NCBI GenBank assembly: GCA_963664305.2
Contig: CAXXLV010000001.1
Location: 736,001-800,000, forward strand
DNA length: 64,000 bases
Direction: 5' to 3'
From: an uncultured Aliarcobacter sp.
GTDB taxonomy: Bacteria; Campylobacterota; Campylobacteria; Campylobacterales; Arcobacteraceae
The notes below the pieces were generated by a model. The model was not told where the DNA came from. It saw nothing but the letters and a program-made list of their open reading frames with translations, and did no database searches. Position 1 is the stretch's first letter. Each line of letters opens with the position of its first letter. Shown in pieces: positions 9,092 through 39,082 of the stretch. The translations under genes were made by a program, and so were the position numbers.

Positions 9092-9451
9092 TTACGCTAC
9101 TTTTACTCTGTATAGATTCATGTCATCTAATTTTTTACAAATATCTTTAGTTGAATCACCATCTACGCTTTTTGAAATTTCAGAAATTTGGTATTTATTT
9201 GTGTAATAAATCATTTTGAAATCATCTTTAGGTGCACATTCTGTGTTTGTATAATAATCAACTAATGCTGTGTGTAAAAAAGTACCAGCTGGCACAGAAA
9301 GTTCTTCTAATTTAACACCTTCTCTTGTTTCACTTGTTAAAGTTACAGTTTTCCCTGAAGCATCAATTCCTTCATTAACTTTTTCAATTACTTTGTCAAA
9401 ACTAACATTATTTCCTTCACTCGCTGGGAAGTGGTATCCACATATAAACAT
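9092..9451 (-). CDS. Unknown 119-aa protein inside the nifH-nifD-nifK operon
   Basis: Strong SD (AAGGAGA), no terminator on either side, no family recognised. Confidence 0.85.
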   Translation of the reverse strand: MFICGYHFPASEGNNVSFDKVIEKVNEGIDASGKTVTLTSETREGVKLEELSVPAGTFLHTALVDYYTNTECAPKDDFKMIYYTNKYQISEISKSVDGDSTKDICKKLDDMNLYRVKVA

Positions 9452-9495
9452 GATTTTCTCCTTACTACTATTTTTTATTTATTTTTTTAATTTAA

Positions 9496-10410
9496 TTAAG
9501 CTTCTTCAGCTTTTTTACCGATATTATCTAAATCAGCTTCTTCTTCTAAACCGAATTCCATTAATAGGTTTTCTAAATCATCCATTTCTAATGGAGTTGG
9601 AATAACTTTTAAGTCATTAGCAATGATTTTTCTTGCTAATTCTTTGTATTCCATAGCTTGGTCAGATGATGGAGCGAACTCAACAACTGTCATTCTTCTT
9701 AACTCAGCTCTTTGAACGTGGTTAGATCTTGGAACGAAGTGAATCATTTGAGTACCAATTTGCATTGCTAAGTGTTTAGCTAAATCGTACTCTTTATCTG
9801 TCATCCTAGCGTTACAAATTAATCCAGCAAGTCTTACCCCACCAGTATTTGCATATTTTAAAATACCTTTAGAAATGTTGTTAGCTGCATACATAGCCAT
9901 CATTTCTCCAGACATTACGATGTAGATTTCTTGTGCTTTACCTTCTCTAATTGGCATAGCAAATCCACCACATACAACGTCTCCAAGAACGTCATAAGAA
10001 ACGAAATCTAATTCGTCATCATAAGCACCTTCTTCTTCTAAGAAGTTAATAGCTGTGATAACTCCTCTACCTGCACATCCAACACCTGGCTCTGGTCCAC
10101 CTGACTCAGTACAATTGATATAACCTTCAGTTATTTCATTGTTATCGTAGTGGAATTCACCAGCACCTGGTTTACATACATCTTCTAATTCTAAATCTTC
10201 AACTGTTCCAGCTTCAGAAGCTAATTGCATAATTGTAGATTGAGCTTTTTCATGTAAGATTAATCTTGTTGAATCCGCTTTTGGGTCACATCCAACGATT
10301 AATATTTTTTGACCATAATAGTGACACATAGCTGCTAATGTGTTTTGAGATGTAGTAGATTTACCAATCCCACCTTTTCCGTAAAACGCGATTTGTCTTA
10401 ATGCTGACAT
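9496..10410 (-). CDS. nifH: Nitrogenase Fe protein
   Basis: [44 protein letters not shown]; start moved to ATG 10410 (SD AAAGGAG; the ORF-track start lies upstream of the predicted TSS). Confidence 0.99.
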
Positions 10411-10449
10411 TTTATCTCCTTTGATTGTTATGTTTACGAAAATCATTAT

Positions 10450-10465
10450 TGCATCTAGTGTTCCA
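10450..10465 (-). promoter_or_regulatory. sigma54 promoter of nifH (TGGAACACTAGATGCA)
   Basis: GG-N10-GC about 40 nt upstream of the nifH start. Confidence 0.9.
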
Positions 10466-10667
10466 CAGAAAGTTTTTTTTCAAAAAAAAATTTATTTTTT
10501 TTCAAAAGCCCTTAAAATAGGCACTAATTTAATAAAATAAATTTTGCAATTTATTTTTAGGAGATTTTTTATCCTATTTTATTTAAGTAAATTTTGTAAG
10601 TTTTTGAAAAAAATATAGTTTCAAAAATGTATAATTTGGAATACGGATAAAAAAGGATTAATAAAAA

Positions 10668-11912
10668 ATGATAATAGATTCTCTCTTCACCCATTTACTT
10701 TTTACAATTTTGTTTAGTTTTTTAATTGGATTAGAACTAAGAGCTTACAAATTAAAATTCCATTCTGAAGATATATTGTTTTTTGGAACAGTAAGAACTT
10801 ACACTTTTGTAGGAATTTTAGGATTTGTTTTATATAAGATTGAACCTGTAAATTTCTCTGTATATATAGTTGGATTTTTAGGTATTACACTTTTGTTTTC
10901 CCTTTTTTATAAAAAATTATTAGAAGAAAAAGAACATAGTATAGTTTTATATTTAGTTTTACTTATTGTTTATAGTTTTGGACCTTTATCAAATCTTTTT
11001 CCATTATGGCTTACTTCATTAGTATTTGTTTTAACAATCTTTTTATTAAATGCAAAGAAAAAGATTTTGAATTTTAATATGAGAATAAATATCTACGAAT
11101 TTGAAACTTTAGGAAAAATGGTTTTATTATCAGCTGTTGTTTTACCACTTTTACCAGAAGAAAAAATAATCCCTTATTTAGGAATTTCCCTTTATAAAAT
11201 TTGGTTAACAGTAGTTGTAATTTCAGGTATTTCATATGCTGGCTATTTAGTTCAAAAGTATCTTTTCCCTTCAAAAGGTATTTTTCTAACAGGATTAATT
11301 GGTGGAACATACTCTTCAACTGCAACAACAGTCGTTTTATCAAAAAAAGCACAAAGTCTTGAAAAGAACCATATTATAACGGCTTCTATAATTGCTGCAA
11401 CAACAATGATGTATATTAGAATACTTATAATTTCATATATTTTCAATTTTGAAGTAGCAAAAACAATTTTGTTACCTTTTGTTTTTTTCATTGTTTTAAC
11501 AACGATTTTTACTTATATTTATTATAAAAAAGCTTCTACAACTACAAACAATATAAAAGTAAAAGATACAAATCCCCTAGAATTAGGAACAGCATTTATT
11601 TTTGCAATTTTGTTTATTATGACAATGTTGGTTACAAATTATGTAATTGAAAATTTTGGTACAAATGGATTGAGATTTTTATCATCAATTATTGGATTTG
11701 CTGATATTGACCCATTTATTTTATCTTTACTTACAGGTAAATATTCTATTGAATCAACTCAAATAGCATCTGCAATTATTATTGCATCAGGGAGTAATAA
11801 TATTTTGAAAGCAGTATATACATTGTGGTTTGGAAAAGATAAAACTTTTTCAAGTTTTGTTATATTGACAATTTTGGGAATAGCAACAATTTTGGTAGGA
11901 TTTTTTGTATAA
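10668..11912 (+). CDS. MgtC/SapB-like + DUF4010 membrane protein
   Basis: LIGLELR..FGTVRTYTFVG N-terminus; GGTYSSTATT; many TM segments. Confidence 0.75.
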   Translation: MIIDSLFTHLLFTILFSFLIGLELRAYKLKFHSEDILFFGTVRTYTFVGILGFVLYKIEPVNFSVYIVGFLGITLLFSLFYKKLLEEKEHSIVLYLVLLIVYSFGPLSNLFPLWLTSLVFVLTIFLLNAKKKILNFNMRINIYEFETLGKMVLLSAVVLPLLPEEKIIPYLGISLYKIWLTVVVISGISYAGYLVQKYLFPSKGIFLTGLIGGTYSSTATTVVLSKKAQSLEKNHIITASIIAATTMMYIRILIISYIFNFEVAKTILLPFVFFIVLTTIFTYIYYKKASTTTNNIKVKDTNPLELGTAFIFAILFIMTMLVTNYVIENFGTNGLRFLSSIIGFADIDPFILSLLTGKYSIESTQIASAIIIASGSNNILKAVYTLWFGKDKTFSSFVILTILGIATILVGFFV

Positions 11913-37371: not shown

Positions 37372-37381
37372 GTAGTATACC

Positions 37382-37624
37382 ATGGAAAAATTAGAAGATA
37401 AAATCATTTGTGAGTGCGGTGAAAAGACTGTTGCTCAAGCTGTTGAAATCTTCAAACATACTGATTTGCCATATAAAAAAGCGAAAAAACTAGTAACTGG
37501 TTGTAATCAAACCTGTTGTAGAAGACCTTTAATGGCACTATTTAATATGATTGAATTTGGTGAAATCGACTATGAAGAGATTGCTTTTTTAATTGATGCA
37601 AAAAATGATAGGTTAAAGGATTAA
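37382..37624 (+). CDS. BFD-like [2Fe-2S] protein
   Basis: IICECG...TGCNQTCC. Confidence 0.65.
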   Translation: MEKLEDKIICECGEKTVAQAVEIFKHTDLPYKKAKKLVTGCNQTCCRRPLMALFNMIEFGEIDYEEIAFLIDAKNDRLKD

Positions 37625-37627
37625 GCT

Positions 37628-38623
37628 ATGGCAAGTGATATTGAAAACTTCGTTAAATGGATTAGAGCAAACGATTTAACTCCAATAATGTCAACGCATA
37701 GTGATGATTTGGAGTTTTTAACACATCTTGATTTATCAAAAAGAAATTTAAAAGATTTACCTGAGTCTATAGGCGTTTTAAAAAATCTTAATGTTTTAAA
37801 ACTATCAAATAATAGAATCAGAAAACTTCCAAAAGCAATTGGAGAGTTAAAAAAACTTAGAAATTTACAATGTGAAAATAATTTGATTGAAGAACTTCCT
37901 GAAACTATAGGTGATTTAGAAAATCTAATGATTTTAAATCTAAATGTAAATAGAATAAAAGTTTTACCAAAAGAGTTTTATAACCTAACTTCACTTACAA
38001 GATTAACACTTGCATCAAATAGAATAGAGAAGTTAGACCCAGAGTTTGGTAATTTATCAAAACTTTTATATCTATCTTTAGAAACAAATGAACTTGAAGA
38101 GTTACCAGAAGTTTTTGAGTCGATGAAACAGTTATATTATTTGGATTTATCTTTTAATCATTTGACAAATCTTCCAAACTCTTTATCAAAAATTAAAGAA
38201 TTGGAAACATTGATTTTAGAAGGTAATACTATAAAAGAGTTGCCATCATTAGAGAGCCATGATATGCTTCTAAAACTTGATTTGAGTGACAATAACTTAA
38301 AAAGTTTAGACTTTGATATTAGTAAATTAGAAGATTTGAAAATATTAAGAATTGATAATAACTATTTAACATCTATTCCTGATGAAATTTGTAATTTACA
38401 AAACTTAGTTAGTTTAAGTGTTAGTTCAAATAGACTTAAATCTCTACCTGAACAAATTGGGCATATAAAAACACTTCAAGAGTTAGATGTGGAAGAAAAT
38501 GAGTTGGAGAGTTTGCCAAAATCTATAGAAGAATTAGAGAATTTAAAAGAGTTGTATATAGACAATAATAAAAATCTAAAAAAACCAGAAAAATTAGAAT
38601 TAGAATTTTGTGATGTGAATTAG
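37628..38623 (+). CDS. Leucine-rich repeat protein (about 13 repeats of about 23 aa)
   Basis: LxxLxLxxNxLxxLPxxIxxL repeats; no signal peptide. Confidence 0.95.
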   Translation: MASDIENFVKWIRANDLTPIMSTHSDDLEFLTHLDLSKRNLKDLPESIGVLKNLNVLKLSNNRIRKLPKAIGELKKLRNLQCENNLIEELPETIGDLENLMILNLNVNRIKVLPKEFYNLTSLTRLTLASNRIEKLDPEFGNLSKLLYLSLETNELEELPEVFESMKQLYYLDLSFNHLTNLPNSLSKIKELETLILEGNTIKELPSLESHDMLLKLDLSDNNLKSLDFDISKLEDLKILRIDNNYLTSIPDEICNLQNLVSLSVSSNRLKSLPEQIGHIKTLQELDVEENELESLPKSIEELENLKELYIDNNKNLKKPEKLELEFCDVN

Positions 38624-38632
38624 GAGAAGAAG

Positions 38633-39082
38633 ATGAGAGATTTAGTATTAATGGAGAAACAAATTTTAGAGCTGTTACAGTTTCATGCAAATGATGATTA
38701 TGCAAAAGATGAATTAGCTCCATTAATTGCCAAGACATCTCTTGAAATGGGGCATTTATATTCGGATTTAGGATTAGCAAGTAGAAAAGAGATGGGAGAA
38801 CTTATGTCAAAAAATTTCACATCTCTTGCAAATGTAAAACCTGATGATGTAAGATGGAAAAAATATTTATATGATTGTATAGGAAAAACAGCACCTGCAT
38901 GTGCCACTTGTGGTGATATCTCAAACTGTTTTAACTGTACATTAAATCCAAATAGAGAGAAAACAGAAGTGAAAAAAAGTAAAATATTAGAAGGAAGATT
39001 TGCTACAGGAAACAAAGATTTAGTAATCTTAGTCTCTTTTGAAGTAACAATCTTCTTAATGTCATTTTTTTTAATATATTAA
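38633..39082 (+). CDS. nifQ: NifQ (short form) with an atypical C-terminal extension
   Basis: HLYSDLGL..R, RWKKYLY, APACATCGDISNCF. Confidence 0.85.
   Translation: MRDLVLMEKQILELLQFHANDDYAKDELAPLIAKTSLEMGHLYSDLGLASRKEMGELMSKNFTSLANVKPDDVRWKKYLYDCIGKTAPACATCGDISNCFNCTLNPNREKTEVKKSKILEGRFATGNKDLVILVSFEVTIFLMSFFLIY

Follow-up and report, generated by a model that had tools for sequence, protein, structure and literature searches.

How do nitrogen-fixing Campylobacterota keep nitrogenase working under microoxic conditions? Our literature search found no description of this, nor any of the accessory genes that accompany nif in the phylum. Campylobacterota have reportedly been detected in polar seas. 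The accessible text of one study reports active dark nitrogen fixation by them in mangrove sediments (PMC11474244). The question is raised here by the nif region of an uncultured Aliarcobacter sp. (genome 2.78 Mb, ~28% G+C), of which a stretch of 64,000 nucleotides, hereafter the window, was analysed (G000:C1:736001-800000). Pfam and NCBIfam scans of 44 open reading frames (ORFs) identified a canonical set consisting of nifK, nifD, nifH, nifZ, nifW, nifX, DUF269, nifN, nifE, nifB, nifV and nifQ. Between and beside these genes lie others for small proteins, repeat proteins and proteins of enzyme-like folds, and it is these accessory genes that concern us.

As a whole, the region is best explained, and in our judgement likely so, as a Campylobacterota nif regulon with lineage-typical, non-catalytic accessory partners of nitrogenase. 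A preliminary description had proposed instead a network of repurposed folds that protects, matures or switches off nitrogenase in place of the known systems. The accessory genes of the window, named by their first position, are the following:

9092-9451, minus strand: 119-residue protein between nifH and nifD; no family
15099-15443, minus strand: FeSII-like protein, 114 residues; FeSII homology by profile
17690-18943, minus strand: SagB/nitroreductase-like protein, two domains; TIGR03605 domain over cut-off
18927-19370, minus strand: ankyrin-repeat protein; Pfam Ank_2 over cut-off
19371-19892, minus strand: Tpx-fold protein; Tpx homology, peroxidatic Cys and Arg gone
19894-20271, minus strand: shortened Tpx-fold paralogue; weak Redoxin matches, match to the 19371 profile
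28386-29357, plus strand: protein with Sel1 repeats and a NifU C-terminal domain (Sel1-Nfu), both over Pfam cut-offs
33139-33360, minus strand: small ORF divergent from nifB; true length ~61 residues
34891-35181, plus strand: 96-residue ORF after nifB, variable
36346-37152, plus strand: tandem-GNAT-fold protein, 268 residues; overlaps the nifV end
37162-37371, plus strand: Rop-like PF05082 protein (Pfam)
37382-37624, plus strand: 80-residue Cys-rich protein; invariant C-x-C...C-x3-C-C
37628-38623, plus strand: leucine-rich-repeat (LRR) protein; Pfam, over cut-off

Co-inheritance of the accessory genes with nif

Gene order was compared by tblastn with that in 18 further nif regions, whose genomes represent 10 genera of the family, and five conserved blocks emerged. 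The first comprises nifH, the 119-residue gene, nifD and nifK. The second comprises nifN, an optional Tpx-Tpx-ankyrin-SagB module, nifX, DUF269, flavodoxin, nifW, nifZ, the FeSII-like gene, ferredoxin and rpoN, and the third a NifX-like gene, Sel1-Nfu, another NifX-like gene and a flavodiiron protein gene. The fourth runs from the small ORF divergent from nifB through nifB, the optional 96-residue ORF, nifV, and the GNAT-like, Rop-like, 80-residue and LRR genes to nifQ. The fifth holds nifA, Tpx-like, SIR2-like, clpX and ferredoxin genes. In the genome studied here it lies outside the window, with nifA 2.3 kb upstream, then a third Redoxin-like (Tpx-like) gene, a gene with a SIR2_2 domain, a ClpX paralogue and a ferredoxin gene.

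Conservation within these blocks is uneven. The 119-residue and Sel1-Nfu genes occur in all 18 clusters, the FeSII-like gene in 17 (it is absent from G013), and the SagB-like and ankyrin genes in 12 each, the SagB-ankyrin-Tpx module being optional. The preliminary description had singled out 9092, 33139 and 34891 as small proteins of no recognisable kind, and none of the three has a family in the Pfam and NCBIfam scans. Conservation extends to 9092 and to 33139, which is present in 12 of the 18 clusters and lies 3' of nifK in other Campylobacterota; it does not extend to 34891, found in 7 only. The latter ORF is also absent from the closest relative, G148, although the flanking genes are 97-100% identical.

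Phyletic profiles were drawn from a fixed sample of 151 family genomes, in 57 of which nifD was matched (54 over cut-off). Read as counts of co-inheritance among related genomes, which are not independent samples, rather than as a statistical test, the profiles place the 119-residue gene in 56 genomes, the SIR2-like gene in 55, the FeSII-like and GNAT-like genes in 53 each and the LRR gene in 49. All of these genomes have a nifD match, and none of the five genes occurs in the 94 genomes that lack one. The 19371-type Tpx gene was found in 50 of the 151 genomes, with two matches among the 94, one a 142-residue frame with a stop codon and the other weak (E 3e-13). Profiling against nif, which the preliminary description had put forward as a check, thus left only these two weak Tpx exceptions. 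The nifD-matching genomes that lack a given accessory gene are mostly fragmented assemblies, the exceptions being one genus for LRR, one nifD-bearing genus for Tpx, and G013 for the FeSII-like gene.

The association holds beyond the family. When one genome per prokaryote species was scanned, 117 loci with the 119-residue gene were confirmed, and the best 80 of these were examined. Nearly all are named Campylobacterota, including Sulfuricurvum, Sulfurimonas, Sulfurospirillum, Sulfurovum, Nautiliales and Helicobacteraceae; one carries a Pseudomonadota label and one the name 'bacterium'. The order nifH-119-residue gene-nifD recurs in 78 of these 80; in the remaining 2, nifH was not matched upstream in the stretch examined. 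Homologues of the GNAT-like, Rop-like, 80-residue, LRR and 61-residue genes also adjoin nifHDK among these loci, and accessory genes flank nif in Sulfuricurvum, Sulfurimonas, Sulfurospirillum and Nautiliales. Longer nif stretches from four non-family Campylobacterota genomes contain Tpx-like, SIR2-like and clpX genes together in two cases, SIR2-like and clpX without a preceding Tpx-like match in a third, and SIR2-like alone in Nautiliales; Sel1-Nfu occurs in two. The nif-linked LRR protein is ~500 residues long in Sulfurospirillum and Nautiliales (L158:8879-10381, L157:380-1876), with an additional C-terminal part relative to the 331-residue form of the window.

Selection was estimated as the ratio of nonsynonymous to synonymous substitution rates (dN/dS; pairwise Nei-Gojobori, six genome pairs). 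The ORFs flagged by the preliminary description, taken with the third Tpx copy and the SIR2-like gene, have ratios of 0.02-0.37 (0.04-0.17 for the FeSII-like gene); those of the remaining nif-cluster genes scored are 0-0.27. There is therefore no sign of relaxed selection; selection is purifying, and the flagged ORFs are real genes.

These data bear directly on the view that the additional ORFs travel as passengers on a transferable nif island, without a role in nitrogen fixation. Such a view draws on the presence or absence of the nif region as a block within genera, and on the unrelated inserts, such as eut genes, that the nifE-nifN gap accepts. Against it stand dN/dS values far below 1, conservation across families of the phylum, and the retention of the genes where the blocks have become scattered around the chromosome: one genus has kept the nifV-GNAT-LRR block even though 0.1-1.8 Mb separate it from nifD. 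True passengers, moreover, are not conserved. Few or none of the 18 clusters have the eut, LysR, MFS, KefF, HxlR and DUF4010 genes, which are thus insertions; together with a PAS kinase gene they are strain- or genus-specific and fall outside the conserved set. The passenger view is already disfavoured, and we consider it very improbable.

Folds, lost residues and conserved motifs

The product of 15099 is related to a known nitrogenase-associated protein. A profile of 15 orthologues matches FeSII chains in the PDB (9iey, E 3e-7; 5ffi, E 6.9e-6), and the alignment spans FeSII residues 27-113, including the cluster loop and the N-loop insertion. The C-x4-C-x2-C...C ligand set is lost in 13 of the 15 orthologues, which read D-Y-S-K-C...I-A-P, and kept in two (G001 and G012), which read C-Q-x-G-x-C-G-S-C...L-A-C. 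In 15099 itself Cys is kept at one of the four ligand positions, and at least the last Cys ligand is kept in an FeSII-like gene of the Nautiliales stretch. As far as these alignments go, 15099 is a homologue of FeSII (Shethna protein II) minus three of the four cluster cysteines; the preliminary description had seen in it an FeSII-like protein without the Fe-S ligands. In the available text of Franke et al. (2025; PMC11754109), the cluster of FeSII is the site where oxidation is sensed, and the helices hN1 and hN2 of its N-loop bind NifH and NifDK. With three of four ligands lost, the oxidation-triggered FeSII switch cannot work through a cluster of the FeSII-like protein itself. The protein keeps the N-loop, the clamp of FeSII on NifH and NifDK, but is unable to sense redox by its own cluster. 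Together the FeSII-like proteins offer a natural experiment for telling which elements of FeSII protection requires. The neighbouring ferredoxin is present in 18 of 18 clusters, and its best PDB match is 9i2a, 'Ferredoxin-4' (E 1.2e-12).

Three proteins of the region, 19371, 19894 and the third copy beside nifA, are thiol-peroxidase folds that, on alignment, have no peroxidatic cysteine; the preliminary description had noted the first two, and its reading of them held. The 19371 profile matches the thiol peroxidase 2yzh (E 1.7e-13) with the peroxidatic-Cys loop gapped, and the nifA-linked copy matches the same protein (E 1.7e-7). The shortened 19894 has weak Redoxin matches and scores 91 bits against the 19371 profile. 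Within the 19371 family the P-x-x-x-T-x-x-C motif is gapped or replaced, the catalytic Arg is changed to Asn or Lys, and a C-terminal KGHTHENWMG is invariant. A Sulfurimonas Tpx homologue keeps both PSLKTEVC and the Arg, and has the KGHTHENWM tail in common with the 19371 family.

The Q/R-x-x-G-x-G/A sequence is the pyrophosphate-binding loop of GNAT proteins. The preliminary description saw in 36346 a GNAT-like fold without this acetyl-CoA loop, and structure prediction bears it out. An AlphaFold2 (AF2) model (pLDDT 92) has as its best PDB match in Foldseek the tandem GNAT 3ddd (E 2.7e-17, TM 0.79), with other tandem GNATs next, and inspection found no such loop between beta-4 and alpha-3 in either half of 36346, across 13 orthologues.

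The SIR2-like gene upstream of the window adds a further case. Its product matches SIR2_2 (PF13289) at 32.2 bits (cut-off 24.5), the same label is carried by nearly all of 120 listed homologues, and its profile has no match among PDB sequences. The His of the SIR2 K-x-H-G motif is catalytic. In two aligned nif-linked proteins the motif reads K-P-M-G, in contrast to K-x-H-G in six canonical SIR2_2 domains of relatives; Met at the His position is invariant in 18 sequences across the phylum. The SIR2-like protein keeps the T-N-x-D motif. Full-length homologues occur on 72 plasmids, nearly all of them rhizobial symbiosis plasmids, and in R. tropici the homologue is the last gene of a nifA-nifB-fdx-nifZ-nifT operon. 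A candidate counterpart is pnfA of P. stutzeri, specific to nitrogen fixers, whose mutant retained 23% of nitrogenase activity under microaerobic conditions according to the accessible text of Yan et al. (2010; PMC2820453). In most compared clusters the SIR2-like gene is followed in the nifA operon by the ClpX paralogue (L005:13649-14905, upstream of the window). This paralogue recalls the nif-linked clpX2 of Azotobacter. A PADLOC scan returned no match for the SIR2-like, Tpx-like, LRR and SagB-like proteins, generic matches for the ankyrin protein and a weak one for the Sel1 protein (E 3.6e-4); with only such matches, an anti-phage reading was dropped.

Judged by these alignments and models, residue loss is real in at least four fold types. 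The repeat proteins named by the preliminary description, ankyrin (18927), Sel1 (28386) and LRR (37628), are likewise all over Pfam cut-offs. Its HicB-like label for 28386 was not confirmed: the N-terminus matches HicB PF15919 at E 0.15 and 12.6 bits, under the cut-off of 27, and this N-terminal domain is missing in 3 of the 18 Sel1-Nfu orthologues.

Could several of these proteins still be enzymes or metal carriers that use non-canonical residues? The His/Cys-tailed thioredoxin folds might serve, for example, as metal or sulfur chaperones, with the SagB-type dehydrogenase as a partner enzyme whose substrate would be a peptide or cofactor. There is little or no variation in the tails KGHTHENWMG, Y-T-G-x-G-C-H and C-Q-I-x-H, and the first of them is common to the Sulfurimonas homologue with an intact Tpx active site. 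The SagB domain is over cut-off, and the 80-residue protein, conserved across the phylum, has five invariant cysteines. On the other hand, the ORF lists show no precursor peptide or cyclodehydratase gene adjoining the SagB-like gene, and the tails belong to no known family in the searches made. The proposal is a conjecture from motifs; we regard it as rather unlikely. The SagB-like family comprises 259 proteins at E <= 1e-5, and among the 120 listed every organism-named one is from Campylobacterota. Plasmid searches found nothing for the GNAT-like and 80-residue proteins.

The 119-residue protein is the product of an unrecognised gene inside nifHDK. It has no Pfam or NCBIfam family match, and no P-II domain among them. 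Its profile retrieved only 23 proteins from 1.84 billion cluster representatives and nothing significant among PDB sequences (best E 0.92). An alpha/beta fold is predicted by AF2 (pLDDT 89, pTM 0.83), for which Foldseek gave no match at E <= 0.001 and the Atlas no usable look-alike. Residues 4-54 match repeats of giant surface proteins, in what looks like beta-rich repeat similarity. The best VIA-align match, at Z 5.4 to the DapD N-terminal domain, falls in the tool's stated noise range. In a related genome, a second copy of the gene lies directly upstream of a second, divergent nifD-like gene (G048:C1:793824-800527) that is followed by further nitrogenase-like frames, and may belong to an alternative or duplicated nitrogenase set.

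NifH of the window has a 12-residue insertion relative to solved NifH (alignment to 9haz). Every parsable NifH that adjoins the 119-residue gene (97 of 100) has 9-12 extra residues there, with 9 residues at this site in the NifH of other Campylobacterota that adjoin the gene. It is conceivable that the 119-residue protein is a stoichiometric extra component of Campylobacterota Mo-nitrogenase that docks on the lineage-specific NifH insertion and, with the cluster-free FeSII-like protein, gives conformational O2 protection without an Fe-S sensor in the protector. We consider this decidedly unlikely.

The regulon and the proposed accessory set

The preliminary description had placed these genes in operons with sigma-54 promoters. 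A search for TGGCAC-N5-TTGCW with up to 2 mismatches returned 36 sigma-54-type matches, against 19.9 expected, and none of 100 shuffles reached 36. Six sites read TGGAAY-N5-TTGCA and lie directly upstream of nifH, nifX, nifN, the 27971 operon, nifB and nifV; a seventh promoter-like site is upstream of nifE:

10450-10465, minus strand: nifH, -24/-12 site, TGGAACACTAGATGCA
17660-17675, minus strand: nifX, TGGAACACTAATTGCA
21585-21600, minus strand: nifN, its own site
26866-26881, minus strand: nifE, GGGAATAGAATTTGCA
27939-27954, plus strand: 27971 operon (NifX-like), TGGAATAGTATTTGCA
33382-33397, plus strand: nifB
35201-35216, plus strand: nifV

The sites have GG at -24 and GC at -12, at fixed spacing and upstream of operons. 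Counting all seven promoter-like sites, the region is a nif regulon of the NifA/sigma-54 type, and the observation of sigma-54-type sites is confirmed. The canonical NifA box TGT-N10-ACA is not enriched (20 matches, 21.3 expected), and a palindrome upstream of nifE has no repeat at the other promoters. The rpoN gene inside the nif region is the single copy of the genome, and has the same placement in 18 of 18 compared clusters.

The remaining genes of the region are as follows:

6046-7590, minus strand: nifK; TIGR01286 over cut-off
7601-9058, minus strand: nifD; TIGR01282 over cut-off
9496-10410, minus strand: nifH; TIGR01287
13490-14737: rpoN, directly downstream of the ferredoxin and FeSII-like genes
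14792-15088, minus strand: intact 2Fe-2S ferredoxin; Pfam Fer2
15538-17625, minus strand: nifZ, nifW, flavodoxin, DUF269, nifX; Pfam and NCBIfam
20261-21589, minus strand: nifN; NCBIfam
21673-25346: ethanolamine permease and eutC/eutB insertion between nifE and nifN
25483-26829, minus strand: nifE; NCBIfam
27971-28375, plus strand: first NifX-like protein
29354-29713, plus strand: second NifX-like protein
29686-30948, plus strand: flavodiiron protein
33382-34877, plus strand: sigma-54 site and nifB; NCBIfam, promoter search
35201-36364, plus strand: sigma-54 site and nifV; NCBIfam, promoter search
38633-39082, plus strand: nifQ; Pfam NifQ

A block for the uptake of molybdate and its regulation at 1161-5923 adjoins nifK and contains TOBE proteins, an ABC transporter and a ModE-like regulator. 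The C-terminus of NifW (15920-16255) is rich in Cys and Ser, and that of the first NifX-like protein (27971-28375) reads S-G-S-C-A-C-S-S-K-K; such C-terminal Cys motifs are unusual for nif accessory proteins. The eut insertion occurs in none of the 18 related clusters, not even in a relative that is 95-100% identical, and the nifE-nifN gap of other genomes carries unrelated inserts of 0 to ~11 kb.

How might these operons act together? NifA and the only sigma-54 of the genome would drive about seven operons. Besides the canonical genes, these operons encode the 119-residue, FeSII-like, three Tpx-fold, GNAT-fold, Cys-rich, LRR, ankyrin and Sel1-Nfu proteins and, downstream of nifA, the SIR2-fold protein with Met for the catalytic His and the ClpX paralogue after it. 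As non-catalytic binding partners co-produced with nitrogenase, the proteins would act on its components in microaerobic cells by stabilising, maturing or shielding them. Going by their sequences, binding rather than catalysis is probably the means by which they help or protect nitrogenase. We infer this binding, and a role in protection or maturation, from the homology, residue loss, nif linkage and purifying selection described above.

A stronger version of this idea, that of the preliminary description, takes the degenerate folds and repeat proteins for a single integrated interaction network that in this lineage replaces DraT/DraG, NifI, NifL, NifM and canonical FeSII in switch-off, protection and maturation. 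It is favoured by the inheritance of the genes with nifD and by the unusual concentration of non-catalytic folds and repeat scaffolds in the region. The absence of known regulators, on which it leaned, was confirmed in part. DraG and DraT were searched for in 14 genomes, each with a control. No DraG family member was found in the genome studied here, where the control matched in 7 of the 14; no DraT family match was obtained either, but the control was silent in all 14 genomes, which leaves the DraT search uninformative. NifL and NifM have no match over cut-off in the whole genome, and its P-II genes are confined to the other contig. Set against the network are the distribution of the genes over at least five separately promoted operons and the independent variation of the modules (SagB-ankyrin-Tpx in 12 of 18 clusters, LRR lacking in one genus, FeSII-like lacking in G013, 34891 in 7 of 18), and the SIR2-like family occurs in rhizobial nif operons as well. 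A single integrated network is therefore unlikely in our view. The ties to nif and the residue loss that inspired it stand; the genes are a co-inherited accessory set rather than a demonstrated single machine.

Several observations also weigh against an accessory set of non-catalytic partners. Loss of canonical residues is no proof of lost activity, and the invariant tails KGHTHENWMG, G-C-H and C-Q-I-x-H could function as active or metal sites of another kind. The residues by which FeSII touches NifH in the available text of PMC11754109 (R72, N73 and K76) are not conserved in the FeSII-like alignment. The equation of the SIR2-like protein with PnfA gives a candidate identity only, and the accessible part of PMC2820453 never mentions SIR2. 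Co-occurrence within one family, finally, is in part the inheritance of a single island.

The accessory set is broader than the window; it is phylum-wide and rich in folds without catalytic or ligand residues. Purifying selection acts across the phylum on a cluster-free FeSII relative, an unrecognised nifHDK gene and several pseudo-enzymes, and these genes are concrete candidates, open to testing, for new protectors that bind nitrogenase or for new maturation factors.

Comparison with known systems

The 119-residue gene occupies the nifH-nifD slot that in anaerobes and archaea is taken by the P-II proteins NifI1 and NifI2, and is of similar size. It differs from them in having no P-II signal and no clear PDB fold match, and in being restricted to Campylobacterota in the searches made. 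The SIR2-like protein belongs to the same family as the SIR2 proteins of rhizobial nif operons; both are found in nif operons, and in the searches made only in nitrogen fixers. The Campylobacterota protein is 26-28% identical to the rhizobial ones, and its gene follows nifA and a Tpx-like gene and precedes the ClpX paralogue.

Relative to Tpx, an atypical 2-Cys peroxiredoxin (2yzh), 19371 and the nifA-linked copy are homologous over the full length. The nif-linked proteins differ in the loss of the peroxidatic Cys loop and catalytic Arg, in their conserved C-terminal His/Cys tails, and in their number, with three paralogues per nif region. The GNAT-like 36346 has the same predicted fold as the tandem GNATs 3ddd, VipF and Eis; it is without the CoA loop, its gene overlaps the end of nifV, and its family is confined to Campylobacterota in the searches made.

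FeSII of Azotobacter vinelandii (5ffi, 8rhp, 9cu0) shares with 15099 homology over the ferredoxin core and N-loop as well as a nif context, and two orthologues within the family still have all four Cys. What sets 15099 apart is the position of its gene inside the nif cluster, beside that of an intact 2Fe-2S ferredoxin, and the replacement of the ligands in 13 of the 15 orthologues.

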